Assembly: GCA_049323135.1 (NCBI GenBank)
Contig: JBMOMH010000309.1
Span: forward strand, 1 to 45,157
Length of the DNA stretch: 45,157 nt
Direction: 5' to 3'
Source of the DNA: Actinomycetota bacterium
Lineage (GTDB): Bacteria > Actinomycetota > Actinomycetes > JBMOMH01
A program made the position numbers and the translations under genes. Position 1 is the stretch's first letter; every line of letters starts with the position of its first letter. Positions 498-20,945 of the stretch are shown piece after piece. Under the pieces are notes generated by a model. It did not search any database, had not been told where the DNA came from, and saw only the letters and a program-made list of their open reading frames with translations.

Positions 498-506
498 GAC
501 CCTGGT

Positions 507-3853: not shown

Positions 3854-4500
3854 CGCGCAAGTCCATCCCGCTCACCGCCGAGCTGCACGACTACGTCGTG
3901 GCGCACGGCACACCGCCCGACCCGGTGCTGCGCGACCTGCTCGCCGAGACCGCGGCGCTCGGCGGTGCCGCGGAGATGCAGGTCCCGCCCGAGGAGGGGG
4001 CCCTGCTCACCCTGCTCGCCCGGCTGGTGGGGGCACGGGACGCGGTGGAGGTGGGCACGTTCACCGGGTACTCGTCGGTGTGCATCGCCCGGGGCCTGTC
4101 CCCCGACGGGCGGCTGGTGTGCTGTGACGTGTCCGCCGAGTGGACCGCGGTGGCGCGGCGGGCCTGGGCGCGGGCCGGGCTCGCCGACCGGGTCGAGCTT
4201 CGGCTGGGGCCGGCCCTGGACACCCTGCGGGCGATGCCGCCGGAGCCCCTGTTCGACCTGGCCTTCCTCGACGCCGACAAGCAGGGCTACCCGGCCTACT
4301 GGGCGGAGCTGGTGCCGCGGGTCCGCAGCGGTGGCGTGCTCGTGGTCGACAACGTGCTCCGGGACGGGCGCGTGCTGGCACCGACGGCCGAGGACGACGT
4401 CGCCGTGGCGAGGTTCAACGACGAGGTGTGCGCCGACGCACGTGTGGACGCGGTGCTGCTGCCCGTCGCCGACGGCGTCACCATCGCCCGGCGCCACTGA
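3850..4500 (+). CDS. class I SAM-dependent O-methyltransferase (caffeoyl-CoA OMT-like)
   Basis: The ATG overlaps the choD-like stop (ATGA). SAM-binding VEVGTFTGYS and the FLDADK and VVDNVL motifs are typical of the OMT family 3 fold. About 216 aa. Confidence 0.8.
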   Translation: MTRKSIPLTAELHDYVVAHGTPPDPVLRDLLAETAALGGAAEMQVPPEEGALLTLLARLVGARDAVEVGTFTGYSSVCIARGLSPDGRLVCCDVSAEWTAVARRAWARAGLADRVELRLGPALDTLRAMPPEPLFDLAFLDADKQGYPAYWAELVPRVRSGGVLVVDNVLRDGRVLAPTAEDDVAVARFNDEVCADARVDAVLLPVADGVTIARRH

Positions 4501-4531
4501 GGGCCCGCCCAGCTCGGCGGCCGCGCTCCGG

Positions 4532-5521: not shown

Positions 5522-6288
5522 GGCGCCACCCCGATTCTGACCAGCAGGTCCACAACCGCGGGTGCGGCGTGCGGGCCTTCGCCCAGGAGCTGCACCGAAC
5601 TTGGTGGCTGTGGCGGAAGCTTCAGCCGCACCCGCCCGGAACCAGCCGGCTCCACCTCGGGACTCACGACGTCCACCGGCGCCCGCCTGGCCTTCATCCG
5701 ACCGGGTACCGAGGGGTAACGCGGGGTCACGCCGCCCTCCTTGACGGCCAGGACCGCGGGCAGGGGCACCTCGTACACCTCCGTTCCGTCCGGACCGTCC
5801 GCGTGGGCCACCACGTCCTCCCCGACGACCTCGCACGTCGAGATCCCGCTGGCCACGGGCCTGCCCAACGCGTAGGCCAGGCGCACGCCCACCTGGTAGT
5901 CCCCGGTGTCGGCCGCGTCCGTGCCCACCAGCACCAGGTCGTAGGTCGTGCCCTGCGCCTGGTGCGCGTGGACCAGGGCGGCGATCGCGGCCGCCACGTC
6001 CCGTGGGCCGTACCGGTCCGCCTCACCCTCCAGCAGCACGCCGCGTGCGCAGCCGACGGCGATCGCATCGCGCACGTGTTGCACCGCCTCGGGCGGGCCG
6101 AGGGTCAGTACCGTCGCCTCCCCGCCGGTGGCCGCCGCGATCCGCACCGCCAGCTCGACCGCGCACTCCTCGTGGGGGCTGATCGTGTATCCGACGTGCC
6201 GAGCGTCGATGGACTGGCCGTCGGCGGACAGCAGGATCCGCTCAGAGGAGTCGGGCGCCCGTTTGACGCACACCAGCACGTTAGCCAT
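5518..6288 (-). CDS. etfB: electron transfer flavoprotein beta subunit
   Basis: MANVLVCVKRAPD..., YDLVLVGTDAADTGDYQVG and LPAVLAV are typical EtfB/FixA features. The start lies 3 nt after the stop of the upstream dehydrogenase. Confidence 0.9.
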   Translation of the reverse strand: MANVLVCVKRAPDSSERILLSADGQSIDARHVGYTISPHEECAVELAVRIAAATGGEATVLTLGPPEAVQHVRDAIAVGCARGVLLEGEADRYGPRDVAAAIAALVHAHQAQGTTYDLVLVGTDAADTGDYQVGVRLAYALGRPVASGISTCEVVGEDVVAHADGPDGTEVYEVPLPAVLAVKEGGVTPRYPSVPGRMKARRAPVDVVSPEVEPAGSGRVRLKLPPQPPSSVQLLGEGPHAAPAVVDLLVRIGVAP

Positions 6289-6291
6289 CGC

Positions 6292-8808
6292 TCACCTCCG
6301 GATCCGCTCGTTGGCGGGGTCGAACAGTGGCGTCGCGTCCGCGGCCGCGACGGTCACCGGGTAGCGCTCTGCCAGGTACTCGACGGCGAGCTCGGCGCCG
6401 ATCACAGCCTGACTCGGCGGCAGGTAGCTCATCAGCACGTGCTTGCCGAGTGAGGGCGCCGACCCGGCCGTGGTCACGTAGCTACGGCGGCCGTGTCCGT
6501 CCACGAGAGGCTCGCCGTCGCGCGTGAGCACCGGTTCGCCCCCCAGCATGTACCGCAGGGTCCCGTCGGCCGACGTGTGGTCATCGACGGTCAGCGAGCA
6601 CAGCACCGCCGCCGGTTCGGACCCGCGCTGCTTCAGGTACGCCTCTCGCCCGATGAAGTCGGCGTCCTTGACCTTGGGTCGGGACATGCCGGCCTCGACC
6701 AGGGTGCGCTCGGTGTCCAGCTCGGCCCCGTGGGCGCGGTAGCTCTTCTCGATCCGTCCGGTGGTGCCGTAGACGCCGATGCCTATCGGCACCAGCCCCT
6801 GTGGCCGGCCCGCATCCCACAGTAGGTTCCACAGCCGGGCGCCCTGCTCCATCGGTGCATACAGCTCCCAACCTAGCTCACCGACGTAGGAGATGCGCGA
6901 GGCAAGCACGGTCAGCGGACCGACGTCGACGGCGCGGCAGGTGGCGAACCGGAAGCCGTGGTGGCTGACGTCGGACTCGGTCAGCGACCCGAGGATGTCA
7001 CGGGCTCGTGGGCCCCACAGCCCGACGGTGGTGTAGGCGGAGGTCTGGTCGACGACCTGAACCGTGCCATTGCCCGGCAGATGGTCGGCGAACCACTTCC
7101 GGTCGACGTTGCCGGTGGCCCCGCCAGTGACGACGCGGTACCGATCCTCGGCCAGGCGCTGGATGGTCAGGTCTGCGCGGATGCCCCCGCGGTCGTCCAG
7201 CACCGGCGTGTAGATCACGTTTCCCGGCGCCACGTCCGCCTCGGCGACGACGAGGCGCTGCACGGCCTCCGCGGCACCCGGTCCGAGGACGTCGAAGATC
7301 GCGAAGGCGGACAGGTCGCAGATCCCGGCGCGCTCCCGCATCGCCAGATGCTCGGCGTTGATGATCGGGGACCACCAGCGAGCGTCCCACTCGGCTCCGC
7401 GCGGCATCACCGCCGCGCCGTAGTCGCCGAGCAGCCCCGCGTTGGACTCGTACCAGAAGGGGCGCTCCCAACCCGCCGTCTCGAAGAACACCGCGCCCAG
7501 CTCGCGCTCGCGGGCATGCATCGGCGACAGCCGCACCTCGCGGTTGCTCGCCCACTGCTCAGCCGGATGGACGATGCCGTAGGTCTTGTTGAACGCCTCG
7601 CTGGTGCGGGCCCTCACGTGAGCCTTGGTGCGCTGATGCGGGTAGAAGCGCGCGACGTCCGACTGGTGGGCGTCGTACTCCGGGTTGCCGTCGGTCATCC
7701 ACTCGGCGAGCAGCCGCCCCACCCCGGGCCCCTCCTTGATCCACACCGCGGCGGCCGACCACAGACCCTTGACCTCGGCGGTCTCACCCAAGATGGGGTA
7801 GCCATCCGGCGTCAGCGACAACAAGCCGTTGATCGCATAGCGGATCTCCACCCGGGGGTCGCCGAGCACCTCGGGCATCAGCTCGAGCGCCTGCTCCAGC
7901 TGCAGGTCGAAGTCCTCGGCAGTGAACGGCAGCTCCGTCGGCGACAGCTTGGCCTGCTCGATGGACGGAATCTGCTCCGCGTCGTACAGGATCGGGCGGT
8001 GTGCATACGAGCCGACCTCCAGGTCACCGCCGTGCTGCCGCTCGTAGCAGAACGTGTCCATGTCCCGGATGATCGGAAACGAGATCTCGCCCACCGTGTC
8101 CGCGAACTGCGGCACCGGCCCCACGCTGATCATCTGGTGTACCGCCGGCGTGAGCGGGATGGACGCCCCCGCCATCCGCGCCAGCTTCGGGCTCCACACG
8201 CCGCAGGCGATCACGACGGTCTCCGCCTCGATCACCCCGCCGCTGGTTCGAACGGCGCGGATCCGTCCCGCGGCGACATCCAGGCCCGTGACCTCGACCG
8301 AAGACACCACCTGCAAGGCGCCGGACTCCTGGGCGCGCTCGCGCATGATCGTGCCCGCCCGCAACGAGTCGACGACGCCGACCGAAGGCGTCCAGAAGCC
8401 GCCACGGATGACCGAGGGATCCAGGTAGGGGACCCGCTCGGTCACCTGGGCCGCAGACACCAGGTCGGCGTCGATCCCCCACGCCTTGGCCGACGCCACC
8501 CGCCGGCGCAGCTCCTGCATCCGCTCCTCGGTGCGCGCCACCTCGAACCCGCCGGACTCGACGAAGACGCCCAGCTCCCGGTACTGGCGCATGCTGTCAG
8601 CGGTCAGGTCGGTCATCTCCCGTGAGTGGTCCACGGGGAAGATGAAGTTCGACGCGTGACCGGTCGAGCCTCCCGGGTTGGGCAACGGCCCCTTGTCGAG
8701 CTGCACGATGTCGCGCCAGCCCAACCGGGCCAGGTGGTACCCCACACTGTTGCCGACGATTCCGGCCCCGATCACTACCACCCGCGCGCTACCGGGCACT
8801 GTGCTCAT
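6292..8808 (-). CDS. FAD-dependent oxidoreductase fused to GcvT-type aminomethyltransferase (THF-binding) domain; dimethylglycine/sarcosine dehydrogenase-like
   Basis: I chose ATG 8808 as the start (MSTVPGSARVVVIGAGIVGNS...). The N-terminal DAO fold carries GGSTGHAS, a candidate flavinylation His. The C-terminal GcvT folate domain shows SYVGELGWELY. The gene lies directly upstream of etfBA. Confidence 0.8.
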   Translation of the reverse strand: MSTVPGSARVVVIGAGIVGNSVGYHLARLGWRDIVQLDKGPLPNPGGSTGHASNFIFPVDHSREMTDLTADSMRQYRELGVFVESGGFEVARTEERMQELRRRVASAKAWGIDADLVSAAQVTERVPYLDPSVIRGGFWTPSVGVVDSLRAGTIMRERAQESGALQVVSSVEVTGLDVAAGRIRAVRTSGGVIEAETVVIACGVWSPKLARMAGASIPLTPAVHQMISVGPVPQFADTVGEISFPIIRDMDTFCYERQHGGDLEVGSYAHRPILYDAEQIPSIEQAKLSPTELPFTAEDFDLQLEQALELMPEVLGDPRVEIRYAINGLLSLTPDGYPILGETAEVKGLWSAAAVWIKEGPGVGRLLAEWMTDGNPEYDAHQSDVARFYPHQRTKAHVRARTSEAFNKTYGIVHPAEQWASNREVRLSPMHARERELGAVFFETAGWERPFWYESNAGLLGDYGAAVMPRGAEWDARWWSPIINAEHLAMRERAGICDLSAFAIFDVLGPGAAEAVQRLVVAEADVAPGNVIYTPVLDDRGGIRADLTIQRLAEDRYRVVTGGATGNVDRKWFADHLPGNGTVQVVDQTSAYTTVGLWGPRARDILGSLTESDVSHHGFRFATCRAVDVGPLTVLASRISYVGELGWELYAPMEQGARLWNLLWDAGRPQGLVPIGIGVYGTTGRIEKSYRAHGAELDTERTLVEAGMSRPKVKDADFIGREAYLKQRGSEPAAVLCSLTVDDHTSADGTLRYMLGGEPVLTRDGEPLVDGHGRRSYVTTAGSAPSLGKHVLMSYLPPSQAVIGAELAVEYLAERYPVTVAAADATPLFDPANERIRR

Positions 8809-8857
8809 CACGCCGCCTCTCGCACGGGGCTCAAGGGAACCTATGGTGTCTCTTATG

Positions 8858-8883
8858 ACGCAACTTGACGCAGTATACGCAAC
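8858..8883. promoter_or_regulatory. three direct repeats ACGCAAC-N3-ACGCAG-N3-ACGCAAC in the AT-richer spacer upstream of the dehydrogenase-etfBA operon
   Basis: Read directly from the sequence. Repeat phasing is about 10 and 9 nt. The repeats overlap the predicted -10 element. Confidence 0.35.
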
Positions 8884-8900
8884 GACCGGCTCCCGCACAA
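8872..8900 (-). promoter_or_regulatory. candidate housekeeping-sigma promoter TTGTGC-17 nt-TATACT for the dehydrogenase-etfBA operon
   Basis: On the minus strand TTGTGC (8900-8895) and TATACT (8877-8872) are separated by 17 nt, about 60 nt upstream of ATG 8808. A GAGAGG Shine-Dalgarno-like element precedes the start. Confidence 0.35.
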
Positions 8901-8923: not shown

Positions 8924-9649
8924 CTAGCCGGCAGCACGGTCATCGGCCTCCGGAAGGGGCTGCGCGAGCAGCCGCGCCAGCTCCGCCTCGAGCCCGCCGT
9001 CGCCGACCACGAGGACGGCCAGGGGCAGCCCGAGGGTGGCGGCGGCCTGCTCGGCGCGCCGCCGCAGGTCCGGCGTCGGCCGTTGCGCCAGCCACAGCGC
9101 CCGGCGGTAGTGACCGAAGTAGTCGTCCCGCAGGTCCGGGTAGCGGTCCAGCCCCAGCTCGACGACGACGCTGCGGTGGAACGAGCGCACCAGGTAGTCG
9201 GTGAGCAGGTAGGTGCCCGGCTCGGCGGCCAGCTCCGTGGCCAGCGTCTCGGCGCCCGCGAACACCTCGTAGCAGTGCTGTCCGCGCAGCCGGCGCAGCC
9301 CCTTCCGATGGCACAGGTCGTCCAGCGCCCCGTACGTGCCGCAGTCCGCGTACGCGATGGCAACCCTGCGGTAGCGAGTGCCCAGCCGGTCTACCAGCCG
9401 TTCCACGGCCGGTACCACGCGGTCCGGATGGTTGTGCAGCAACGGGGGCAGCGGGTGTACGTCGACCGGCCAGCTGCGCCGGGCCACTACCTCGCTCACG
9501 TGGGCGGCCAGGGCGCCGCAGGCGATGACCGCGGTGCGTGCCGGCGTACCGGCCGCACTCGGCGGGCCCGAGGGCGCCCGGTCAGCCGGGGAACGCGAGA
9601 TGGGCGACGAAGCGGTCGTTGAAGTCAGGCCGGTCGGACAGCTCGACAT
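8924..9649 (-). CDS. DUF1638 domain-containing protein (start uncertain)
   Basis: The core VIACGALAAHV...HPLPPLLHNHPDRV...IAYADCGTYGALD...RLRGQHCYEVF...LLTDYL matches what I recall of DUF1638 proteins found next to MttB/corrinoid genes. The only canonical in-frame start upstream of the conserved N-terminus is ATG 9649. That start overlaps the activase gene by 68 nt. Confidence 0.6.
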   Translation of the reverse strand: MSSCPTGLTSTTASSPISRSPADRAPSGPPSAAGTPARTAVIACGALAAHVSEVVARRSWPVDVHPLPPLLHNHPDRVVPAVERLVDRLGTRYRRVAIAYADCGTYGALDDLCHRKGLRRLRGQHCYEVFAGAETLATELAAEPGTYLLTDYLVRSFHRSVVVELGLDRYPDLRDDYFGHYRRALWLAQRPTPDLRRRAEQAAATLGLPLAVLVVGDGGLEAELARLLAQPLPEADDRAAG

Positions 9650-11468
9650 AGCGCACCTCCTCCAGCAGGGCCAGGGCACCGGCGCGCTCCTGGACGCTGA
9701 GCAGCGCCATCTTCGCCCCCTCGCCGGCGACGTTGCCGGCACTGACGATGCGCAGCACGGGCAGCGCCGGCACGAGCCCGATCCGCACCGCGGAGGACGG
9801 CGACAGGTAGGACCCGAAGGAGCCCGCGAGCAGCACCTGCTGCACGTCCCGCGGCGCCAGCCCCAGCTCCTCCAGGAGCAGCTGCCAGCCCGTCGCGATG
9901 GCCGCCTTGGCGAACTGGAGCTCCCGGATGTCCCGCTGCGAGAGGTAGACCGCCTGGTCCAGGTCGCCCGGCGTCCCGCGCCAGTGCAGGACGAACACCC
10001 GCTCCGCCCCCACCCGGACCAGCCGCTCGGCCAGCGCGGGGAACTGCTCCCCGGCGACCTCGTCCGGGACGAAGCGGCCGGAGGCGTCCACCAGTCCGGT
10101 GCTCACCAGCTGCGCGACGGCGTCGACCAGCCCCGACCCGCAGATCCCCCGGGGCTCCACCCCGCCGATGGTCTCCAGGTGCACCGTGTCGTCGGCCAGC
10201 CGCACGACCTCGATGGCCCCGTCGGCGGCGCGCATGCCGCAGCGCACCGAGCCGGCTTCGAACGCCGGACCGGCCGGCGCGGCGGTGGCGAGGAGCCGCT
10301 CGCCGTCGCCGAGCACGATCTCGCAGTTGGTACCGACGTCGATGAACAGGCGTACCCGCCGGTCGCGGTCCATCCCGGCGGCCAGCGCCCCAGCGACGAT
10401 GTCGCCGCCGACGTACGCGCCCAGGTGCGGCATGAGGATGGCCCGGGCGCGCGGGTGTACCGACACCCCCAGCTCGCGGGCCAGCACCTCGGGGTACCGC
10501 CGGTCGGCGAGTACGAACGGGGCGACCCCGAGCGGCTCGGGGTCGATGCCGAGCACCAGCTGCGTCATCGTCGCGTTGCCGGCCAGGGCGATCTCGTAGA
10601 CACACTCCGGGTCCACGCCGGCCTCTGCGCACACCTCCGCAGCCAGCTCGGCGAGCGTCTGCTGGGCCAGGTCCCGCAGTCGCTCCAGGGCGGTGGGGTC
10701 CAGCATGGTGGCGCTGATCCGCGTGATGACGTCCGCGCCGAAGGGCTGCTGTTTGTTCAGCATCGACGCCACGGCCAGCGGGGTACCGGTCTCCAGGTCG
10801 AGCAGGGTGGCCACCACGGTCGTCGTACCGAGGTCGAAGGCCATCCCGTACCGCTGCGCCGTCGTGTCACCCGGCTCCAGGGCGATGAGCACGTCGTCGA
10901 CGACGACGGCGGTGACCCGCCAGCCCGCCGACCGCAGCACCCGTCCCGCACTGCGGACGACGTCGAGGTCCGGGCGGACCTCCAGGTCGTCCAGCGCGTC
11001 CACGATGCGGGCCACGTCGCTGCGCTGGTCCTGCAACGTGGGTTCGGTGAGCTCCAGGAAGCGCTTCTGCACGGCCGGGCGCAGGATCACCTGCCGCCCG
11101 ACCCCCACCGTCGCCGCCTTCGGTCGGGTCTGCAGTGGCGGCACGTCGACGCGCAGGTCCTCCCCGGCCCGGGCTAGGCAGGCCAGCCGCCAACCGTCCC
11201 GCAGCTCCTCCGGGCTGAAGGCCCGCACGTCCAGCCGTCCGACTGGGACCGACCCGTCGACGATGCGGACCTTGCACTTGCGGCAGGTGCCGTGGCCGCC
11301 ACACGTCGAGTCGATGGCCACGCCGTTCCAGCTGGCCGCCTCGAAGACGGAGACCCCCGGGGGGACCCGCACCTGCTTGCCACTGGGCGAGAAGTCGACC
11401 CGCACCCGAGCGGGGGCCGCCTCGGGCACGTCGACCTCCGGTGGGGTGGCCGGCAGGGGTTCGGTCAT
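9582..11468 (-). CDS. corrinoid reductive activase, RACo type (N-terminal plant-type 2Fe-2S ferredoxin plus ASKHA ATPase domain)
   Basis: ATG 11468 overlaps the upstream stop (ATGA). 2Fe-2S motif CGGHGTCRKCKV...LAC. ASKHA/DUF4445 blocks are GMAFDLGTTTV, LAGNATM, FIDVGTNCEIVLG, GICGSGLVD and LLAGSFGSYL. Confidence 0.85.
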   Translation of the reverse strand: MTEPLPATPPEVDVPEAAPARVRVDFSPSGKQVRVPPGVSVFEAASWNGVAIDSTCGGHGTCRKCKVRIVDGSVPVGRLDVRAFSPEELRDGWRLACLARAGEDLRVDVPPLQTRPKAATVGVGRQVILRPAVQKRFLELTEPTLQDQRSDVARIVDALDDLEVRPDLDVVRSAGRVLRSAGWRVTAVVVDDVLIALEPGDTTAQRYGMAFDLGTTTVVATLLDLETGTPLAVASMLNKQQPFGADVITRISATMLDPTALERLRDLAQQTLAELAAEVCAEAGVDPECVYEIALAGNATMTQLVLGIDPEPLGVAPFVLADRRYPEVLARELGVSVHPRARAILMPHLGAYVGGDIVAGALAAGMDRDRRVRLFIDVGTNCEIVLGDGERLLATAAPAGPAFEAGSVRCGMRAADGAIEVVRLADDTVHLETIGGVEPRGICGSGLVDAVAQLVSTGLVDASGRFVPDEVAGEQFPALAERLVRVGAERVFVLHWRGTPGDLDQAVYLSQRDIRELQFAKAAIATGWQLLLEELGLAPRDVQQVLLAGSFGSYLSPSSAVRIGLVPALPVLRIVSAGNVAGEGAKMALLSVQERAGALALLEEVRYVELSDRPDFNDRFVAHLAFPG

Positions 11469-12322
11469 GCCGGCTGCTGTTGGCGGCGGTAGCTCGCGAT
11501 CCAGCTCGCGCCCCAGGGGTCGTGGCCGAGCAGCAGGTCCGCGGCGCGCACCGACGTGACGATCGCCGGCGTGCGCGCGTCCATGATGGCGCTGGTCAGC
11601 CCGTGCGACATCGCCATGGGCAGGAACGCGGCGTTGAGGGTGTGCCGCGCCGGCAGCCCGAAGGACACGTTGGAGGCGCCCATCGTCATGTTCAGCCCGA
11701 ACTCGGCGCGGATCAGCGTGATGGTCTCCAGCGTGACGTTGACCGCCTCGGTGTCGGCACCGACCGTCATCGCCAAAGGGTCGATGACGATGTCCTCGAT
11801 CGGGATGCCGTAGCGCTCCGTGGCCACGTGCACGATCTTGCGGGTGATCCCCAGGCGCTGTGCCGGCGTCTCCGGTATGCCCGTCTCGTCGTTGGCCAGG
11901 GCGATGACGGCGGCGCCATGCCGCTTGACCAGCGGCAGGATCTGGTCCAGCCGGTCGTCCTCGGCGGTCACCGAGTTCACCAGCGCCTTGCCCTCGTACG
12001 CCGCCAGCCCGGCCTCGAGGGCCTCCACCACCGAGGAGTCGATGCACAGGGGCAGGTCGGTGCGGCTCTGCACGAGCTTCACCGCGCGTGCGAGCAGGTC
12101 CGCCTCGTCGGTCAGCGGCACACCCATGTTCACGTCGAGCACGTCGGCGCCGCCGTCCACCTGAGCCTGGACGTCGACCTCGATCTGGGACAGGTCACCG
12201 GCGCGCAGCTGCTCCTGAAACTTCCTCCGTCCGGTGGGGTTGATCCGCTCCCCGATGACGCAGAACGGCCGGTCGTGACCGATGACGACGTCCTTAGACG
12301 GCGATCGCAGGACCGTGTGCAT
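11465..12322 (-). CDS. pterin-binding methyltransferase (methylcorrinoid:tetrahydrofolate methyltransferase, MtgA/MtrH/AcsE-like)
   Basis: Start ATG 12322 (MHTVLRSP...). The pterin-binding TIM-barrel blocks are VIGERINPTG, GADVLDVNMG, LCIDSS, ALVNSV, DPLAMTVG and GASNVSFGLP. Confidence 0.8.
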   Translation of the reverse strand: MHTVLRSPSKDVVIGHDRPFCVIGERINPTGRRKFQEQLRAGDLSQIEVDVQAQVDGGADVLDVNMGVPLTDEADLLARAVKLVQSRTDLPLCIDSSVVEALEAGLAAYEGKALVNSVTAEDDRLDQILPLVKRHGAAVIALANDETGIPETPAQRLGITRKIVHVATERYGIPIEDIVIDPLAMTVGADTEAVNVTLETITLIRAEFGLNMTMGASNVSFGLPARHTLNAAFLPMAMSHGLTSAIMDARTPAIVTSVRAADLLLGHDPWGASWIASYRRQQQPA

Positions 12323-13238
12323 GATGCTGCTCCTCGGGTTGGCGGCGGGAGAGTCCCAGGTCGGACAGGAGGCGGGCCACGCTGTCGTCGTGGCGGAAGT
12401 CGGCGAGGTGCAGGCCACGCACCCCGGGCAGGGACAGGGCGTGCCGCGCCTGCTCCAGGGCCAGCTGGTAGGCGGCCTCCCGCTGGTCGGCGGCGCCCTC
12501 GACGCGGGCCACCACCTCGGGCGGGACGGTGATGCCTGGCACGTGGGCGTCGATGAAGCGCAAGGCCCGGGGCCCGCGGACCAGGCAGATGGTCGGCAGC
12601 AGCGCGACGCCCGGCGCCAGCCCGGTGGCCACCGCCTCGCGGGTGAAGTCGGCCAGCCGGCCGGGGGAGAAGCAGATCTGCAGCTGGAGGAACCGCGCCC
12701 CGGCCGCCGCCTTCTTCAGTCCGCGGCGCACCCGCAGCTCGTGGGGGGGAGCACCCGGGTTCTCCACGGCGCCGACGAACAGGTGTGGGGCGGGGTCGAT
12801 GGCCCGGCCGGACAGGTAGCGTCCGGCGGCGAGCGTGCTGGCCACCTGGACCAGCTGCGGCCCGTCCAGGTCGAAGACCCGGCGCGCCTGCGGCTCGTCG
12901 CCCGCCGTCACGTCGTCGCCCGTCAGGCAGCAGATGTTCTCGATGCCGTGCAGGGCCGCCCCGACGATGTCGGCCTGGATGGCCAGGCGGTTCTTGTCAC
13001 GACACACCACCTGCAGCACGGGCTCCACCCCGGTCTGTTGGATCGCGATGGCCACGGCCACGTTGGACGCGTGCGCGTGCGCCGCGGTGTTGTCGGTGGC
13101 GTTGACCGCGTCGACCCACGGCGCCAGCCCGGCCAGGTGCCGGCGTACGACGTCCAGCCCGCCACCGTCCACCACGGGCAGCTCGGCGGTGACGACGGGC
13201 CGCTCGCCGGTCTGCAGCAGCGTCTCCAGGAGGGACAC
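12294..13238 (-). CDS. metF: methylenetetrahydrofolate reductase, MetF type
   Basis: MTHFR-family blocks are VTAELPVVDG, DAVNATDN, VVCRDKNRLA, ENICCLTGDD and FVGAVENP. GTG start. The 3' end overlaps the downstream methyltransferase start by 29 nt. Confidence 0.8.
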   Translation of the reverse strand: MSLLETLLQTGERPVVTAELPVVDGGGLDVVRRHLAGLAPWVDAVNATDNTAAHAHASNVAVAIAIQQTGVEPVLQVVCRDKNRLAIQADIVGAALHGIENICCLTGDDVTAGDEPQARRVFDLDGPQLVQVASTLAAGRYLSGRAIDPAPHLFVGAVENPGAPPHELRVRRGLKKAAAGARFLQLQICFSPGRLADFTREAVATGLAPGVALLPTICLVRGPRALRFIDAHVPGITVPPEVVARVEGAADQREAAYQLALEQARHALSLPGVRGLHLADFRHDDSVARLLSDLGLSRRQPEEQHHAHGPAIAV

Positions 13239-13239
13239 C

Positions 13240-13617
13240 TCAATGCCCCCCGGCGTGCTCGGGGGACCACCCGGCGGGTACCTGCCGGTCCCGCCCGGTG
13301 ACCAGGTTCCACCAGGAGGACGTGCCCCGCAGCCGGTTGTCCACCGGCGGGCGCAGGTGGTGGAACTCCTCCCGCCAACCCTGGGGCAGCGGCAGGCGCT
13401 GCGAGCGTTCGTAGCCCCGCAGCCACACGCAGCGCATCTCCGGCTTCACCTCGCAGCCGCCGTCCTCGCGCACCCCGCCACACGGACCGTTGCGCAGGGT
13501 CTTGGGACAGTTCATGGGACAGGTCATACCGGTGGAGTGCAGCACGCACTGCCCGCACATCTGGCAGTCGAACACCGGACCCTTGACCGCGTGCTCGACG
13601 AGTGGCAGCAGCTTCAT
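13240..13617 (-). CDS. MetV-like Cys-rich protein (methylene-THF reductase C-terminal-domain family)
   Basis: The 125-aa ORF carries CQMCGQCVLHSTGMTCPMNCPKTLRNGPCGG, the signature I associate with MTHFR_C/MetV partners of acetogen-type MetF. It ends 1 nt before the metF start. Confidence 0.7.
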   Translation of the reverse strand: MKLLPLVEHAVKGPVFDCQMCGQCVLHSTGMTCPMNCPKTLRNGPCGGVREDGGCEVKPEMRCVWLRGYERSQRLPLPQGWREEFHHLRPPVDNRLRGTSSWWNLVTGRDRQVPAGWSPEHAGGH

Positions 13618-13626
13618 GGTGCCGCC

Positions 13627-14292
13627 TCAGGCCGGCTGCAGGGCGCGACGGCGCTGGAGCAGGTCCTTGGCACGCTTCACCGCGGCCGAGGCGTCCGCGG
13701 CGTAGCCATCGGCGCCGACCGCGTTGGCGTACTCCTGGGTCACCGGGGCACCGCCGACCATGACGATGACCTGGTCGCGCAGCCCCGCCTTCTCCAGTGC
13801 GTTGATGTTCGCCTTGAACATCGGCATCGTCGTGGTGAGGAACGCGGAGAAACCGACGATGTCCGGCCGGTGCTCCTGGATCGCCTCGACGAAGCGTTCC
13901 GGGGCGACCTGGACGCCGAGGTCGATGACGGTGAAGCCGGCGCCCTCCAGCATGATGTTCACCAGGTTCTTGCCGATGTCGTGGACGTCACCCTTGACGG
14001 TTCCCATGAGGAAGGTGCCCACCGACTCCGCACCCGTCTGGGCCAGCAGGGGTCGCAGCACGTCGAGCGCGCCGCTCATCGCCTTCCCGGCGATGAGCAT
14101 CTCCGGGACGAAGAAGTCGCCCCGCTCGAACCGCGCCCCGACCTCCTCCAGGGAGGGGATCAGGGCGTCGAAGAGCATGGTCTCCGCGCTGACGCCCGCG
14201 GCGAGGCCCGCCCGCGTCAGGTCGAGCACCGCGGGGCCGTTGCCCACCAGCGTCTGCTCGTAGAGACCGGTCAGGATCTGCTCGGGCGTCAT
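13627..14292 (-). CDS. corrinoid (cobalamin-binding) methyl-carrier protein, MtgC/MtbC/MttC-like
   Basis: An N-terminal B12-binding cap helix bundle is followed by a Rossmann domain with the base-off/His-on motif GDVHDIGKN, then GFSAFLTTT and MVGGAP. Confidence 0.9.
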   Translation of the reverse strand: MTPEQILTGLYEQTLVGNGPAVLDLTRAGLAAGVSAETMLFDALIPSLEEVGARFERGDFFVPEMLIAGKAMSGALDVLRPLLAQTGAESVGTFLMGTVKGDVHDIGKNLVNIMLEGAGFTVIDLGVQVAPERFVEAIQEHRPDIVGFSAFLTTTMPMFKANINALEKAGLRDQVIVMVGGAPVTQEYANAVGADGYAADASAAVKRAKDLLQRRRALQPA

Positions 14293-15062
14293 GCGGCGCC
14301 CTCCTTTCGTGGGTGGTGGCCGAGCCGGGCCGAGAGGCCGCGGCCTTCGGCGGCGAGCAAGGCCCCGATCGACTCGACGCGGTCAGGAGTGATCCGCGCT
14401 GTGGGTCCGGAGACCGACAGTGCCGCGACGACGGTGCCGGTGCCGGCCCGCACCGGGGCGGCGACGGCGACGAGGCCCGGCTCGAGCTCCTCCACCGCGA
14501 CCGCCCAGCCGCGCCGGGTGACCGCCTGCAGGTCGACGGCCAGGGCTTCGCGGGTGGTGATGGTGTGCGGCGTACGCCGCTCCAAGCGCCCGCCAGGCAG
14601 CACGGTGGCGCCGTACGCCAGAAAGACCTTGCCCAGCGCCGAGCAGTGCAGCGGGACGGGCAGCCCCACCCAGTTCGTGGCGCCCAGCAGGTAGCGGCTG
14701 TCCACCTGCGCGACCTGCAGCACCTTGTCACCTTGGGGGACGGCGAGGTTGACCGTCTCCCCGGTCAGCTCGCCCAGCCGTTCGAGGACCGGCTGCGCCA
14801 TGGCGACCAGGTCCTCCCCGGCGTCGTGCCGGGACGCGTAGAGCGCGAACACCGGCCCCGCGTGGAACGCGCCGGACCTGTCCCGCTGGACGAGGCCGTG
14901 CCGCTCCAGCGCCTGCAGGATCCGGGAGGTGGTGGACCGGGCCAGCCCCGAGGCCGCGGCGAGGTCGGTGAAGGTCACCCCGGCGGGGCGCTCGACGACG
15001 CGCACCAGCAGCTCGGCGGCCCGGTCGATCGCCTGGGTGCCGGTCTGCGCGGGAGGGGCCAC
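14289..15062 (-). CDS. IclR-family transcriptional regulator (first cistron of the corrinoid operon)
   Basis: The N-terminal wHTH is IDRAAELL...FTDLAAASGLARSTTSRILQALE, followed by a C-terminal IclR effector domain. GTG start. The stop overlaps the corrinoid-protein ATG (ATGA). Confidence 0.85.
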   Translation of the reverse strand: MAPPAQTGTQAIDRAAELLVRVVERPAGVTFTDLAAASGLARSTTSRILQALERHGLVQRDRSGAFHAGPVFALYASRHDAGEDLVAMAQPVLERLGELTGETVNLAVPQGDKVLQVAQVDSRYLLGATNWVGLPVPLHCSALGKVFLAYGATVLPGGRLERRTPHTITTREALAVDLQAVTRRGWAVAVEELEPGLVAVAAPVRAGTGTVVAALSVSGPTARITPDRVESIGALLAAEGRGLSARLGHHPRKEGAA

Positions 15063-15108
15063 CTGCTGCCCTCGATCCTCGGTGAGAGTTCCACATCATG
15101 GGAGCACT

Positions 15109-15120
15109 GTTCCAAGGAAC
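15109..15120. promoter_or_regulatory. perfect palindrome GTTCCAAGGAAC in the iclR / MttB-family divergent spacer; candidate operator
   Basis: Read directly. A further GTTCC copy lies 21 nt upstream (15088). A TAGGAT -10-like hexamer follows at about 15126-15131. A GGAGG Shine-Dalgarno element sits 5 nt before ATG 15180. Confidence 0.35.
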
Positions 15121-15179
15121 GAGCGTAGGATGCCGGGCGACCACCGTCAAGGGGCAGGGCAGAACGGGCTGGAGGTCCG

Positions 15180-16619
15180 ATGTTCGTCAACGCGATGCCG
15201 CGGTACGAGATCCTCACCGGCGAAGCCATGGCGGTCCTGGACAAGGGCTGGCGACGCATCGTCTCCGAGATCGGCGTGGAGTTCATGTCCGAGCGGGCCC
15301 TGGACCTGTTCCGGGCCGCCGGCCAGCGGGTCGAGGGCCACAACGTGCGGCTGGACCCCGACTTCGTCCTGGCGCAGGTGGCCCAGGCCCCCCGGGAGTT
15401 CGACGTACAGGCCCGCAACCCGGCCCACTCGGTGCACATCGGCGGCCAGCACATGGCATTCGGCGGTGTCTACGGCCCGCCCTTCGTCCGGCAGGGAGGT
15501 GTCCGGCGGGACGCCACCATGGAGGACTTCCGTCGGTTCACCCGGCTCGCGCAGAGCTTCCCCCAGCTGGACTCCGCGGGCGGCGTGATCTGCGAGCCCA
15601 ACGACGCCCCGCTGGACTCTCGGCATCTGGACATGGTGCTGGCGCTGCAGACCCTGACCGACAAGATCTACATGGGTAACGTGGTATCCGGGGCGAACGC
15701 GCGGGACACCCTGGCGATGACCGAGATCCTCTTCGGCGGCCGGGAGCACATCGAGGCCACCCCGGCCACCATCTCGCTCATCAACTGCAACTCCCCGCTG
15801 CGTTGGGACGACCGGATGCTGGACGCGCAGTTCGAGTACAGCGCGGCGAATCAGCCGGTGGTGCTCACCCCGTTCCTGCTCATGGGCGCCATGTCCCCGG
15901 TGTCCGTGCCCGCCACCCTGGTGCAGCAGATGGCCGAGGCGCTGTCCGGCATTGCGCTGTCCCAGCTCATCCGTCCCGGCTGCCCCGTCATCTTCGGCTC
16001 GTTCCTGTCGAACATCGACATGCAGTCCGGGTCGCCCTGCTTCGGCACGCCCGAGTCGGCGGTGGGGCTGCTGTGCACCGGGCAGATCGCCCGGCACTTC
16101 GGCCTGCCCTGGCGGTCCGGGGGCGGGCTCACCTCCAGCCAGACCGCCGACGCCCAGGCGGCCTACGAGGCCCTGATGACGATGCTGCCGACCTTCCTCG
16201 CCGGTGCGAACTGGGTGATGCACTCCGCGGGCTGGCTCGAGGGCGGGCTCGTGGCGTCGTACGAGAAGTTCATCATCGACGTGGAGATCCTGCGCATGCT
16301 GCAGGTCGAGTTCACCCCGCTGGACATCGACGAGGCGTCGCTGGCGTTCGACGCGCACCAGGAGGTCGGTCACGGCGGCCACTTCCTCGGCGCGGCCCAC
16401 ACCATGGAACGGTTCCGGACCTGCTTCTACCGGCCGCTGCTGTCCTCCTCGGAGAACCACGAGCGGTGGCTGCGCAACGGGGCCCGCGACGCGGCCGCCC
16501 GGGCGGGGGAGATCGCCGAGCGGACCCTGGCGGCGTACGAGCCGCCGCCGCTGGACGACGCGATCCGGGCCGAGCTGGAGGAGTATGTCGTCAAGCGCCG
16601 GGCCGAGCTCGGCGACTGA
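15180..16619 (+). CDS. MttB-superfamily methyltransferase, non-pyrrolysine type (quaternary amine, e.g. glycine betaine:corrinoid methyltransferase-like)
   Basis: The 479-aa ORF is uninterrupted and has no in-frame TAG. Blocks RYEILT...AMAVLDKGWRRI, LINCNSPLRWD, LTPFLLMGAMSPVS, VMHSAGWLEGGL and FIIDVEILRM are typical of the MttB TIM-barrel family. Confidence 0.9.
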   Translation: MFVNAMPRYEILTGEAMAVLDKGWRRIVSEIGVEFMSERALDLFRAAGQRVEGHNVRLDPDFVLAQVAQAPREFDVQARNPAHSVHIGGQHMAFGGVYGPPFVRQGGVRRDATMEDFRRFTRLAQSFPQLDSAGGVICEPNDAPLDSRHLDMVLALQTLTDKIYMGNVVSGANARDTLAMTEILFGGREHIEATPATISLINCNSPLRWDDRMLDAQFEYSAANQPVVLTPFLLMGAMSPVSVPATLVQQMAEALSGIALSQLIRPGCPVIFGSFLSNIDMQSGSPCFGTPESAVGLLCTGQIARHFGLPWRSGGGLTSSQTADAQAAYEALMTMLPTFLAGANWVMHSAGWLEGGLVASYEKFIIDVEILRMLQVEFTPLDIDEASLAFDAHQEVGHGGHFLGAAHTMERFRTCFYRPLLSSSENHERWLRNGARDAAARAGEIAERTLAAYEPPPLDDAIRAELEEYVVKRRAELGD

Positions 16620-17413
16620 CCAGCCGACTGACCAGCCGGCCGACCAGCCCGGCCGACCAGCACCGTGGCGTCGGTCGCGTCGCACCGGACCACCCGTCCC
16701 GCCAGGCCCGCGGCCGCGCAGAGCCTCAGCGTCGCGGAGGCCAAGGTCGCGCCGGTCTCCAGCAGCAGGTGGCCGCGGGGGGAGAGCCAGGCGGCCGCGG
16801 CGGCGACGACCCGCCGCTGCACCTGTAGCCCGTCCGCACCGCCGTCCAGGGCGAGCCGCGGCTCGTGGTCGCGCGCCTCCGGCGGCAGGAGGGGGATGGC
16901 GCTGGTGGGGACGTAGGGCGCGTTCACCACCAGGGTGTCCACCCGGCCGCGCAGCCACCGGGGCAGCGCGGCGTAGAGGTCGCCGGCGAACACGGTGCCG
17001 CCGAGCGGTTCGACGTTGCGCCGGGCACACCGGACGGCGGCCGGGTCGAGGTCCGCGGCGTACAGCGTGACCCCGGGGGCCCGTCCGGCGACCGCCGCAC
17101 CTACCGCGCCGGACCCGCAGCACAGGTCGAGCACCACGGCACCGGGCGGGCTCAGGGCCACCGCCTGGTCGACGAGGAGCTCGCTGCGCCGCCGGGGCAC
17201 GAACACCCCGGGGTCCACCTGCACCCGCCGGCCGCCGAGCTCGGCCCAGCCCAGGACGTGTTCCAGGGGCACGCCGCGGACCCGCTGCGCGACCCGGCGC
17301 GCCAGGTCGGCGGGGCCCTCCGCCTCGGCGAGCAGCAGCCGGGCCTCGTCCTCGGCGAAGACGCAACCGGCTGCGCGCAGGGTCGCCACGACGTCGCCCA
17401 CGGCCCCCCCCAC
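16427..17413 (-). CDS. PrmC-related class I SAM-dependent methyltransferase (putative protein N5-glutamine methyltransferase); 3' end probably over-extended
   Basis: SAM motif VLDLCCGSGAVG and substrate motif VVNAPYVP (an NPPY variant). The recognisable domain ends near residue 255. A further 73 or so codons run antisense into the MttB-family gene before the first stop. Confidence 0.65.
   Translation of the reverse strand: MGGAVGDVVATLRAAGCVFAEDEARLLLAEAEGPADLARRVAQRVRGVPLEHVLGWAELGGRRVQVDPGVFVPRRRSELLVDQAVALSPPGAVVLDLCCGSGAVGAAVAGRAPGVTLYAADLDPAAVRCARRNVEPLGGTVFAGDLYAALPRWLRGRVDTLVVNAPYVPTSAIPLLPPEARDHEPRLALDGGADGLQVQRRVVAAAAAWLSPRGHLLLETGATLASATLRLCAAAGLAGRVVRCDATDATVLVGRAGRPAGQSAGQSPSSARRLTTYSSSSARIASSSGGGSYAARVRSAISPARAAASRAPLRSHRSWFSEEDSSGR
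16613..16661. repeat. 12-nt tandem repeat x4 (CGACTGACCAGC, CGACTGACCAGC, CGGCCGACCAGC, CCGGCCGACCAGC)
   Basis: Read directly. Unit 1 contains the MttB-family TGA stop (16617-16619). Unit 2 supplies a second in-frame TGA (16629-16631). Confidence 0.8.
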
Positions 17414-17517: not shown

Positions 17518-18390
17518 TCAGCGGAAGACGATGGTCCGGTTGCCGCTGATCAGGACGCGGCGCTCGGCGTGCCAGGTCACGGCTCGGGCCAGGGCCTGGC
17601 ACTCCACGTCCCGGCCGACGGCGGCCAGCTGCTCGGGCTCGAGGCTGTGGTCCACCCGGGCCACCTCCTGCTCGATGATCGGCCCCTCGTCCAGGTCCGA
17701 GGTGATGTAGTGCGCCGTGGCACCGATGAGCTTCACGCCCCGGGCGTGCGCCTGGTGGTAGGGCCGGGCGCCCTTGAAGCTCGGCAGGAAGGAGTGGTGG
17801 ATGTTGATGGCTCGCCCCTCCAGTCGCTTGCACACGTCGTCGGACAGCACCTGCATGTAGCGGGCGAGGACCACCAGGTCGACCTGCAGGTCGTCGACCA
17901 GCCCGAGCAGCCGGGCCTCGGCCTGTGGCTTGGTCTCGGCGGTCACCGGGATGTGGTGGAACGGCACGCCGTACGACGCGGCGAGCTCCTCGAAGTCGGT
18001 GTGGTTGGACACGACGGCGACGACGTCGATGTTCAGCGCGCCGATCCGGTGCCGGAACAGCAGGTCGTTCAGGCAGTGGCCGAACCGGGAGGCCATGATG
18101 AGCACACGGGTGCGGGTCGTGGCGTCGACCAGGTCCCAGGACATGTGGAACGACTGGGCCACCCACGCGAAGTCCTCCCGCAGGCCGGCGAGGGTGACCG
18201 CGGGGTCGTAGACCTCGAAGTGGACCCGCATGAAGAACAGCCCGTTGTCCCGGTCGTCGAACTGCTGGCTGGCCAGGATGTTGCCGTGGTGCTGCACCAG
18301 GAAGCTGGACACCGAGTAGACGATTCCGGGTCGGTCCGGGCAGCTCAGCGTCAGGAGGAACTCCTGGCCGGGGGCGGGACGAGCGGCCAC
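17518..18390 (-). CDS. purU: formyltetrahydrofolate deformylase
   Basis: An N-terminal ACT domain (LTLSCPDRPGIVYSVSSFL) is followed by a formyltransferase domain (DLVVLARYMQVLS, INIHHSFLPSFKGA, GVKLIGATAHY). GTG start. Confidence 0.9.
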   Translation of the reverse strand: MAARPAPGQEFLLTLSCPDRPGIVYSVSSFLVQHHGNILASQQFDDRDNGLFFMRVHFEVYDPAVTLAGLREDFAWVAQSFHMSWDLVDATTRTRVLIMASRFGHCLNDLLFRHRIGALNIDVVAVVSNHTDFEELAASYGVPFHHIPVTAETKPQAEARLLGLVDDLQVDLVVLARYMQVLSDDVCKRLEGRAINIHHSFLPSFKGARPYHQAHARGVKLIGATAHYITSDLDEGPIIEQEVARVDHSLEPEQLAAVGRDVECQALARAVTWHAERRVLISGNRTIVFR

Positions 18391-18442: not shown

Positions 18443-18530
18443 AGGACACACGATACGCAACAGGGTGCCTGGGACACGGGACCCCGTCAAGGTATCGCGC
18501 TGCGGCGTTCTCCGGCCGTAGTGTTCCGCC

Positions 18531-19361: not shown

Positions 19362-19405
19362 CGGCCCGCCGTAAGACGTGTTTCCTGTTGCACCTACCGA
19401 ACGAT

Positions 19406-19422
19406 GTTGCGCTTGGCGCAAC
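19406..19422. promoter_or_regulatory. 17-bp perfect palindrome GTTGCGC-TTG-GCGCAAC upstream of the betaine operon; candidate operator
   Basis: Read directly. It overlaps the first in-frame ATG (19404) of the raw ORF. This is one reason I prefer the GTG at 19443 as the start. Confidence 0.45.
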
Positions 19423-19442
19423 GTACGCGAAGGGTTGGTGGG

Positions 19443-20945
19443 GTGCCGGACCTCTGTATCGGCGGGGCGTGGCGGGCGGCCGGTGACGGCGGGACCCGGG
19501 AGGTGCGCTGCCCGGCGGACGGGAGCCTGGTGGCGACGGTCGACGAGGCCACGCCGGCCGACGTGGCCGAGGCGGTGGCCGCGGCCCGCCACGCCTTCGA
19601 CCACGGTCCCTGGCCGCGCACACCTGTGCGGGACCGCGCCGCGGTGCTCGCTGCCACCGCGGACCTGCTGGCCGGCCAGGGCGAGGAGATCGCTCGCGCC
19701 GAGTCGCTGGACACCGGCAAACGCCTGGTGGAGAGCCGCTACGACCTGGCGGACGTGGTCTCGGTGTTCCGCTACTACGCCGACCTGGTCGCCTCGGGCG
19801 ACCGGGGCCGGCTGGTGGACACCGGGCTGCCGCACGTGCACAGCCGGGTGCAGCACGAGCCGGTGGGCGTCTGCGCGCTGGTCACGCCGTGGAACTACCC
19901 GCTGCTGCAGGCGTCCTGGAAGGTCGCCCCCGCCCTGGCCGCCGGGAACACCTTCGTACTCAAGCCCAGCGAGCTCACCCCCTCGACGAGCATCCGGCTG
20001 CTCCGCCTGCTGGAGAAGGCCGGCCTCCCCGCCGGCGTGGGCAACCTGGTGCTCGGAGCCGGCCCGGTCGTCGGGGCGCCCCTGGCCACCAGTCCAGACG
20101 TCGACCTGGTGTCCTTCACCGGAGGTGTGGTCACCGGGCGCGCGGTGATGGCCGCGGCCGCGGGGACGGTGAAGAAGGTCGCCCTGGAGCTAGGCGGGAA
20201 GAACCCGAACATCCTCTTCGCCGACGCCCCGTTCGACGTGGCCGTGGACCACGCCCTGACCGCCGTGTTCCTGCACTCCGGGCAGGTGTGCTCGGCCGGT
20301 GCCCGGCTGCTGGTCGAGGAGCCGGTGCACGACGACGTGGTCGCCGAGCTGGTCCGCCGGGCCGAGCAGATCCGGCTCGGGGGACCGTTCGACCCGGACG
20401 CGGACAGCGGCCCGCTGATCTCCGCCGCACACCTGCGCCGGGTGGAGTCCTACCTGGCGACCGCGCTCGCCGAGGGCGCCGAGCTGGCCTGCGGGGGACG
20501 TCGTGACCCGGACCCGGCGCTGGCCGCCGGCTGGTACTTCCGCCCCACCGTGCTGACCGGCGTCCACAGCGGCATGGCCTGCGTCCGGGAGGAGTCCTTT
20601 GGGCCGGTCCTCACCGTCGAGCGGTTCCGCGACGAGGAGGAGGCGGTGGCCCTGGCCAACGACACCGTGTACGGCCTGGCGGGGGCGGTCTGGACGGCCG
20701 ACCGGGGGCGGGCGGCGCGGGTGGCCGGCCGGCTGCGCGCCGGCACCGTCTGGGTCAACGACTACCACCCGTACGTGCCCCAGGCCGAGTGGGGCGGCAT
20801 GAAGCAGTCCGGGGTGGGGCGGGAGCTGGGGCCGAGCGGGTTCGCCGAGTACTGCGAGACCAAGCACGTGTGGGAGAACACCGAGCCGAGACCGTCGGGC
20901 TGGTTCCCGGACCGTGGCCCCACGGCGGGAAGGGTGCACCCGTGA
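19443..20945 (+). CDS. betB: betaine-aldehyde dehydrogenase-like NAD-dependent aldehyde dehydrogenase
   Basis: Motifs are [33 protein letters not shown], catalytic [15 protein letters not shown] and the C-terminal WVNDYHP...[16 protein letters not shown], typical of BADH (BetB/GbsA). GTG 19443 is preceded by GAAGGG. An alternative start is ATG 19404. Confidence 0.75.

Follow-up and report, generated by a model that had tools for sequence, protein, structure and literature searches.

An eight-gene cobalamin-dependent methyl-transfer module

We analyzed a stretch of 45,157 nt from an Actinomycetota bacterium (assembly GCA_049323135.1, contig JBMOMH010000309.1), hereafter the window, and found that it carries a compact, self-contained, IclR-regulated, cobalamin-dependent methyl-transfer module of eight genes. 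This module probably performs the first demethylation of glycine betaine, giving dimethylglycine (DMG), in an aerobic actinobacterium, a reading for which gene context supplies most of the evidence. As the G+C content of the window is about 72%, genes were picked by third-position GC and then tested with profile searches. A previous sequence-only reading of this region had described an MttB-family methyltransferase gene divergent from an operon for a corrinoid protein, a pterin-binding methyltransferase, a reductive activase, a DUF1638 protein and a MetV/MetF-type reductase. The profile searches found every one of these domains where it had been placed, several of them above curated cut-offs. 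The composition of the operon was confirmed for all of the listed genes; its first gene, encoding an IclR-family regulator (14289-15062, minus strand; PF09339 and PF01614), had been omitted.

The mttB/mtgB-like gene (15180-16619, plus strand) encodes an MttB homolog of 479 amino acids that matches PF06253 with 622 bits over positions 25-500 of the 500-position profile, and is preceded by GGAGG, 5 nt before the ATG. As had been claimed, it has no in-frame TAG: there are 480 codons with zero internal stops and a TGA end, so that no UAG is available for pyrrolysine, and the protein belongs to the non-pyrrolysine part of the MttB superfamily. Against the pyrrolysine (Pyl)-type equivalog TIGR02369 it scored 280 bits, with a cut-off of 525.

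The other seven genes lie on the minus strand. Following the IclR gene is that of an MtgC-like, His-on corrinoid (B12-binding) protein (13627-14292; PF02607 and PF02310), which has DVHDIG (DxHxxG) at residues 102-107, the PF02607 cap, a Rossmann domain and GG at residue 180; the exact SxL motif was not found in this protein, which has FSAFL at that place. Its best NCBIfam match was MtgC_2 (203 bits, below the cut-off of 370), and it matched PDB 1y80 at 6.5e-55. Next come a MetV-like small Cys-rich subunit (13240-13617; PF12225, the methylenetetrahydrofolate reductase (MTHFR) C-terminal domain family, 88.8 bits), with eight Cys residues, and a MetF-type methylene-tetrahydrofolate (THF) reductase (12294-13238; PF02219, 70 bits), for which the PDB gave a weak match to the Thermus MTHFR (1e-9). 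The pterin-binding methylcorrinoid:THF methyltransferase, of the MtgD/AcsE/MetH-module type (11465-12322; PF00809), scored 313 bits against NF005719, above the cut-off of 259, and matched PDB 1f6y (MeTr) at 7e-41; among its PDB matches at E ≤ 1e-5, no chain is named MtgA. The RACo/RamA-like ATP-dependent reductive activase (9582-11468) has four Pfam domains in order (Fer2, RACo_linker, Raco_middle and RACo_C_ter), a full-length match to PDB 3zyy (3e-101) and a 2Fe-2S Cys motif, C-x5-C-x2-C-x31-C, at residue 56. A DUF1638 gene (8924-9649; PF07796) closes the operon.

These genes are tightly coupled. The IclR and corrinoid protein genes overlap by 4 nt, gaps of 9 and 1 nt separate the corrinoid protein gene from metV and metV from metF, metF overlaps the pterin methyltransferase gene by 29 nt, and the latter overlaps the activase gene by 4 nt. 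These five junctions agree with the overlaps of 4-29 nt and gaps of 1-9 nt reported before; the sixth does not, as the activase and DUF1638 genes overlap by 68 nt.

Conservation of the module

Relatives of the MttB homolog were sought in a scan of one genome per species, in which at least 582 stretches encode one. Counts out of 80 below refer to the best 80 of these by MttB relatedness, and counts of upstream gene order out of 62 to those among the 80 with at least 6.5 kb of DNA upstream of mttB. The protein has thousands of relatives, and the closest named ones all come from Actinomycetota (Asanoa, Pseudonocardia, Nocardioides, Micromonosporaceae and Propionibacteriales). The best 80 of the at least 582 share 78-87% identity with it and span Micromonosporaceae, Nocardioidaceae, Pseudonocardia, Kineosporiaceae, Geodermatophilaceae, Streptosporangiaceae, Nanopelagicales and Acidimicrobiales.

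The genes for IclR, the corrinoid protein, the pterin methyltransferase and the activase were found upstream of mttB, in the same order and on the opposite strand, in 62/62 loci, and DUF1638 was also present in 60 of the 62. Recurrence at 60-62 of 62 loci is more than chance. The IclR regulator was present in all 80 related loci, whilst a MetV/MetF pair within the module was seen in the window, in only 4/80 actinobacterial relatives and in the Paracoccus module described below. Past mttB in the other direction, genes of the related loci encode PurU (adjacent to mttB in 40/80), a second IclR regulator (79/80), a betaine aldehyde dehydrogenase (BADH)-like protein (41/80) and an OpuA transporter (41/80); DMG oxidase with sarcosine oxidase (Sox), or DMG dehydrogenase with electron-transferring flavoprotein (ETF), was found in 13/80. 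Between classes, for example Acidimicrobiales and Micromonosporaceae, the MttB and corrinoid proteins are about 80-87% identical, and the regulator and DUF1638 of these loci fall to about 50-60%. This disparity suggests that either the methyl-transfer pair is very strongly constrained or the module has spread laterally within the phylum.

A homologous module exists in Alphaproteobacteria. On a plasmid of Paracoccus aminovorans, genes for the activase, pterin methyltransferase, MetF, MetV, DUF1638 and corrinoid protein lie divergent from an MttB gene, and the encoded proteins share 34-57% identity with those of the window. The Paracoccus MttB protein is 80% identical to the Sinorhizobium meliloti protein of PDB 4yyc. 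A search of plasmids returned no actinobacterial copy, only proteobacterial paralogs of less than 60% identity. Among proteobacterial MttB paralogs (Sinorhizobium pSymA, a Shinella plasmid and others), those with Ala or Thr at the position of Y97 in MtgB of Desulfitobacterium hafniense adjoin FAD oxidoreductases resembling DMG dehydrogenase, LysR/GlxA regulators, mandelate-racemase-family enzymes and ProU-like transporters; a Cereibacter paralog adjoins sulfoacetaldehyde acetyltransferase. Their surroundings suggest that the Ala/Thr-type paralogs act on other methylated-amine substrates.

Downstream pathway encoded around the module

The genes on either side of the module encode uptake of a quaternary amine and the steps that follow the first demethylation. 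To the right of the module lies a DMG oxidase ortholog (25167-27608, plus strand), which matched the Arthrobacter globiformis DMG oxidase (PDB 1pj5) over its full length with 1025 bits; the substrate of this true ortholog is exactly the predicted product of the module. A second DMG dehydrogenase/oxidase paralog (6292-8898, minus strand; DAO, FAO_M and GCV_T domains; 556 bits to 1pj5) is encoded next to ETF beta (5518-6288, minus strand; ETF domain) and ETF alpha (4532-5521, minus strand; ETF_alpha domain). Heterotetrameric sarcosine oxidase SoxBDAG (28521-33578, plus strand; DAO, SoxD, SoxA-type and SoxG domains) is followed by FolD (33575-34471, plus strand; THF_DHG_CYH domains). PurU, a formyl-THF deformylase that provides a one-carbon (C1) exit to formate (17518-18390, minus strand), scored 340 bits against TIGR00655, above the cut-off. 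The BADH-like gene and the OpuA-type ABC transporter genes after it occupy 19404-25123 (plus strand), the dehydrogenase scoring 568 bits against TIGR01804, below the cut-off of 668. The transporter itself (20789-25123, plus strand; ABC_tran, BPD_transp_1 and OpuAC) comprises an ATPase, a fused permease and an OpuAC binding protein, whose sole NCBIfam match was to a choline-binding subfamily, far below cut-off.

The inventory of uptake, two DMG paralogs, Sox, FolD and PurU given by the sequence-only reading is thus correct for the window, as judged from domain and PDB matches. Its observation that no Rieske oxygenase or betaine-homocysteine methyltransferase (BHMT) is encoded also holds for the window, which was the scope of our search for first-step enzymes. 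A CxH-x(14-20)-CxxH pattern search in six frames of the window found no Rieske CxH..CxxH motif of the GbcAB/BmoAB type, and no PF02574 domain (BHMT/MtgE type) was present in any scanned open reading frame (ORF) of the window. We assign glycine betaine as the likely substrate because the adjacent oxidases consume DMG, a betaine-type transporter is conserved nearby and the window encodes no other first-step enzyme.

Substrate pocket of the MttB homolog

The best solved match of the MttB homolog was PDB 4yyc (1e-130, 45.5% identity). The nearest solved relatives of the homolog are non-Pyl MttB proteins, among them the biochemically proven D. hafniense MtgB (1e-114 for 2qne and 1e-113 for 9yce); the Pyl-type trimethylamine methyltransferase 7xcl was matched at only 3e-35. 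Mutagenesis and a ligand-bound crystal structure have defined where D. hafniense MtgB holds glycine betaine (Picking et al., 2026; PMC13080624): Y97 and F356 touch the quaternary amine through cation-pi contacts, and R312 and H348 touch the carboxylate. Three of these four residues are invariant in the window protein and 80/80 orthologs: Y98, the counterpart of MtgB Y97, is Tyr throughout, and R312 and H348 are kept, the latter two being general across the MttB superfamily (PMC13080624). W352, four residues upstream of position 356, is also invariant in the window protein and its orthologs, where MtgB has I352, and looks like a clade-wide stand-in for the second aromatic residue. At position 98 the pSymA and Leisingera paralogs have Ala, and paralogs elsewhere have Ala or Thr. 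As the segment HxAGWLEGG is shared by paralogs, some of them with Ala or Thr at position 98, W352 appears to mark the whole clade, and Y98 to be the more discriminating position. An AlphaFold model of the MttB homolog, built with 21 close orthologs to see whether W352 could take the place of F356, was unusable (mean predicted local distance difference test (pLDDT) score 54, segment 314-359 below 50).

Several points weigh against glycine betaine as the substrate. The window protein and 80/80 orthologs have G356 where MtgB has F356, and in D. hafniense MtgB an F356L substitution raised the Km by about 800-fold (PMC13080624); that W352 compensates for the lost F356 is something we only infer. 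The HxAGWLEGG segment is not specific, as it also occurs in 4yyc and in proteobacterial paralogs of quite different context. Identity to the proven D. hafniense MtgB is 40.5%. Since MtcB and MtyB share 53% identity, yet differ in substrate preference (PMC8604678), neither this value nor the 45.5% to 4yyc is high enough to transfer specificity, and the assignment of the substrate thus leans mainly on context. The identity comparisons covered D. hafniense MtgB, 4yyc and proteobacterial paralogs, and left out MtgB1 of Phaeobacter inhibens (PGA1_RS07270) and SPO2108 and SPO2134 of Ruegeria pomeroyi. GbcAB or BmoAB may be encoded elsewhere in the genome. Our literature searches agree with the earlier statement that such a system has not been demonstrated in Actinomycetota: experimental work on an actinobacterial member was not found, only metatranscriptome read assignments and expression at the level of metagenome-assembled genomes (MAGs). 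We are surer of the architecture than of glycine betaine itself, as the substrate call is not secured by sequence.

Proposed mechanism and alternative explanations

In the mechanism that we propose, the MttB-family protein would bind glycine betaine, with R312 and H348 holding the carboxylate and Y98, and probably W352, lying against the trimethylammonium group. One methyl group would pass to the Co(I) of the His-on corrinoid protein, with release of DMG, and the pterin-binding methyltransferase would then move the methyl group from methyl-Co(III) to THF. MetV and MetF would oxidize methyl-THF to methylene-THF, from which FolD and PurU would lead to formate, whilst DMG would be converted by DMG oxidase or its ETF-linked paralog, and then by SoxBDAG, to glycine. 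Oxidation of Co(I) to inactive Co(II) would be expected often in air, and the RACo-type activase would re-reduce it at the expense of ATP. This activase, with its 2Fe-2S and ASKHA ATPase domains, may work with the translationally coupled DUF1638 protein.

The same machinery could instead act on another methylated amine (choline or phosphocholine, proline betaine, carnitine or gamma-butyrobetaine), with glycine betaine handled by an enzyme encoded outside the window. Such a substrate would fit the presence of G356 where D. hafniense MtgB needs F356 for glycine betaine binding, the identity of only 40.5% to MtgB, the occurrence of MttB paralogs of 37-48% identity in clearly different catabolic contexts, the lone, far sub-threshold choline-binding match of OpuAC, and the adjoining BADH-like gene. 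We nevertheless consider this unlikely, as the conserved DMG oxidase/dehydrogenase, sarcosine oxidase and PurU complete a pathway only from DMG, Y98 is Tyr as in MtgB in 80/80 orthologs though it varies to Ala or Thr in paralogs, and the window encodes no carbon-skeleton enzymes for carnitine or proline betaine.

A different possibility is that the module is active only under micro-oxic or anoxic conditions, as a trait of anaerobic methylotrophy, and that the oxidase genes belong to a separate aerobic route with another first-step enzyme. The carriers include Nocardioides, Asanoa, Pseudonocardia and Pimelobacter, which are aerobic genera, and this counts against such a restriction, as does the interleaving of the module with genes for O2-dependent DMG oxidase and SoxBDAG in the window and related loci. 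Co(I) is oxygen-sensitive, actinobacterial MAGs express methylamine methyltransferase genes in Stordalen Mire peat in what was framed as anaerobic methylotrophy (PMC10805028), and P. inhibens growing on glycine betaine induces low-oxygen functions (bioRxiv 10.64898/2025.12.19.695462). However, the proteobacterial homolog of the module functions in cultures grown aerobically (PMC12478193; PMC5764234), and we regard restriction to low oxygen as quite improbable.

It is hardly credible that the corrinoid protein, pterin methyltransferase, activase and DUF1638 serve chiefly as a split methionine synthase of the cobalamin-dependent Phaeobacter type, with MttB as an accessory: although these four component types are indispensable for making methionine in P. 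inhibens and R. pomeroyi (PMC5764234; PMC12478193), the scanned window ORFs lack a PF02574 (MtgE) domain, the operon is divergent from mttB with IclR in 62/62 informative loci, among catabolic rather than biosynthetic genes, and in the window it holds a MetV/MetF pair, which would fit methyl-THF oxidation.

Demethylation of glycine betaine by the corrinoid module, which the sequence-only reading had called the obvious candidate, within a pathway that otherwise looks aerobic, is hence the best-supported explanation. Synteny, the alphaproteobacterial module and the downstream steps in the window favor it; the absence of F356 leaves the substrate unsecured by sequence.

The DUF1638 protein

DUF1638 is the least understood component of the module, and we found no biochemistry of it in the literature. 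Its gene is translationally coupled to that of the activase through the 68-nt overlap, which is conserved. Upstream of an invariant ACGA N-terminal strand, the first canonical start is ATG 9649, and the resulting N-terminus, MSSxPT..TSTT, is common to many DUF1638 orthologs. The gene caller's version of 187 amino acids, starting at GTG 9487, was rejected because it cuts off this invariant strand.

An alignment of 35 actinobacterial DUF1638 orthologs showed C44, C103, C113 and C126 to be invariant, along with H72 and D102. The Paracoccus protein keeps C44, H72, D102, C103 and C126, but not C113, which leaves a Cys3-His(-Asp) constellation that is conserved between phyla. AlphaFold gave a confident model of alternating beta and alpha elements (pLDDT 88), with C44 and C103 placed after strands 1 and 3. 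When the PDB was searched with this fold, nothing was found at E ≤ 0.001 (best E 0.01, query-normalized TM-score ≤0.36); likeness to two-lobed alpha/beta proteins (transcarbamylases, CobK, CbiX and nitrogenase) was weak and not significant, and we did not adopt it. A profile-sequence search of the PDB yielded chance matches only. It is a reasonable hypothesis that DUF1638 is a metal- or cluster-binding partner of the activase.

The divergent intergenic region

The iclR and mttB genes are separated by a divergent intergenic region of 117 nt (15063-15179). Operator-like palindromes occupy 15088-15120, where GTTCCA-N5-TGGGAG (15088-15104) is followed by GTTCCAAGGAAC; 3' of these come a TAGGAT -10-like box and then GTCAA. 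Alignment of 25 orthologous intergenic regions of other Actinomycetota showed conservation of GT.CCA-N5-TGGAAC, T.CCA, TA.GAT and GTCAA. The conserved palindrome GTTCCA-N5-TGGAAC, the second half-site, TAGGAT and GTCAA are most simply read as a putative operator plus promoter. The palindromes emerged in the multi-locus alignment only, as an inverted-repeat tool returned nothing for the iclR-mttB intergenic region.

The 9-mer CCGTCAAGG recurs at 18484-18492, in the intergenic region between purU and the second iclR gene. We also considered CGTCAAGG as a regulon motif. It occurs six times against 1.3 expected, but four of the six sites lie within coding sequence, and for this reason no regulon motif is claimed. 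A search of the whole window with Rfam at gathering thresholds yielded no match to any family, riboswitches for cobalamin, glycine and THF included.

Other genes in the window

Between mttB and purU is a gene for a PrmC-related N5-glutamine methyltransferase (16427-17413, minus strand; TIGR03704, 351 bits, above cut-off), whose ORF overlaps the 3' end of mttB by 193 nt on the opposite strand. The PrmC-related domain ends at residue 254 of 328, so the remainder probably reflects reading on through an antisense frame poor in stops. As the gene is missing from 80/80 related loci, it looks like a lineage-specific insertion.

A pyridoxal phosphate (PLP) enzyme gene (27644-28564, plus strand) lies between the DMG oxidase gene and soxB. 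Its product resembles CysK/CysM/cystathionine beta-synthase (271 bits, below cut-off); a serine dehydratase would be a conceivable expectation in a pathway producing glycine and serine.

At the left edge of the window is a C-terminal fragment of a DUF222 protein (3-497, plus strand). The genes to its right were considered as choline oxidation genes and rejected: that at 552-2162 (plus strand) is a succinic semialdehyde dehydrogenase equivalog, and the GMC-type/FAD oxidoreductase at 2159-3853 (plus strand) is cholesterol-oxidase-like. Profiles tie none of the left-edge genes (3-3853) to betaine catabolism. The roughly 680 nt between the GMC-type gene and ETF alpha (3854-4531) have long ORFs on both strands, with zero Pfam matches.

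Implications

If the glycine betaine assignment is confirmed, the recently discovered aerobic B12-dependent route would reach a second, very large phylum beyond the marine Proteobacteria. Actinomycetota are dominant in soils and abundant in freshwater, and in these habitats the turnover of osmolytes and C1 units would then be controlled by the supply of B12 and cobalt. A broader proposal is possible, though we advance it tentatively: that across Actinomycetota, where over 580 species genomes of soil, peat and freshwater origin have it, the one-locus module is the principal or sole route of first demethylation, and that DUF1638 is the metal- or cluster-binding partner which makes Co(I) regeneration workable in air. 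If this is true, osmolyte turnover in soil, peat and freshwater would depend on cobalt and B12.

The actinobacterial version is also the cleanest genetic package, as all components and the regulator, here with MetVF as well, lie in one divergon. Since it is apparently uncoupled from methionine synthesis, it makes a good system for studying Co(I) upkeep under oxygen and the role of DUF1638. Remaining interest centers on DUF1638 and on oxygen tolerance.

Comparison with known systems

The module shares with the MtgB/MtgC/MtgA system of D. hafniense an MttB-superfamily TIM-barrel, the residues Y97, R312 and H348, and the three-component logic with a reductive activase. It differs in having G356 for F356 and W352 for I352, in its THF methyltransferase, which is of the PF00809 AcsE/MetH type with no MtgA-named match at E ≤ 1e-5, and in its host, which is an aerobe whose downstream steps rely on oxidases. 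The S. meliloti protein of 4yyc, annotated as a putative trimethylamine methyltransferase, resembles the window protein at Y98, R312, H348, W352 and GG355-356; it is proteobacterial, and its substrate is not established in the literature that we found. The activase has the full-length arrangement of 2Fe-2S, linker, middle and ASKHA domains seen in RACo of Carboxydothermus hydrogenoformans (3zyy) and RamA of methanogens. Unlike these, its partner is a methylamine-type corrinoid protein, not the corrinoid iron-sulfur protein (CoFeSP), and it is coupled to DUF1638 in an aerobe.

The sequence-only reading had described this architecture as one characterized in strict anaerobes, a view that is now outdated, as MtgBCD demethylates glycine betaine in aerobic R. 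pomeroyi and P. inhibens, where a RamA-like activase, DUF1638 and MetF2 go with it (PMC12478193; bioRxiv 10.64898/2025.12.19.695462). In R. pomeroyi, proteomics and genetics showed that growth on glycine betaine needs the cobalamin-binding MtgC and the pterin-binding MtgD, and that it induces MttB-family MtgB proteins, a RamA-like activase, DUF1638 and a MetF paralog (Mausz et al., 2025; PMC12478193). Elsewhere in the Proteobacteria these genes often lie together with those for DMG and sarcosine demethylation, and about 5% of the mtgC reads from the ocean were attributed to Actinomycetota (PMC12478193). For P. inhibens, a 2025 preprint reports deletion genetics of mtgB1, mtgC and gbcAB and discusses what the oxidation of Co(I) in air costs in energy (bioRxiv 10.64898/2025.12.19.695462). 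How Co(I) is maintained in an aerobe had been raised as a question, to which a genetic answer already exists: a RamA-like protein and DUF1638, which co-occur across Alphaproteobacteria, are required during aerobic growth for a B12-dependent split methionine synthase (Price et al., 2018; PMC5764234).

The aerobic MtgBCD systems of Ruegeria and Phaeobacter match the window module in having PF06253, a B12-binding protein with its cap, PF00809, an activase with ferredoxin and DUF4445 domains, DUF1638 and a MetF paralog, and in feeding DMG and sarcosine demethylation and THF-linked C1 oxidation in an aerobe; the Paracoccus plasmid module has, in addition, the same divergent gene order. Like MtgD, the THF methyltransferase belongs to the PF00809 AcsE/MetH type, and none of its PDB matches at E ≤ 1e-5 is a chain named MtgA; the window module is therefore of the aerobic MtgBCD kind. 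It differs from these systems in that no MtgE partner lies near it and no link to methionine synthesis is visible, and in that the components, scattered in R. pomeroyi and P. inhibens, form one IclR-controlled divergon in a member of the Actinomycetota. The mechanism itself is not new; the module extends the known aerobic system to Actinomycetota.

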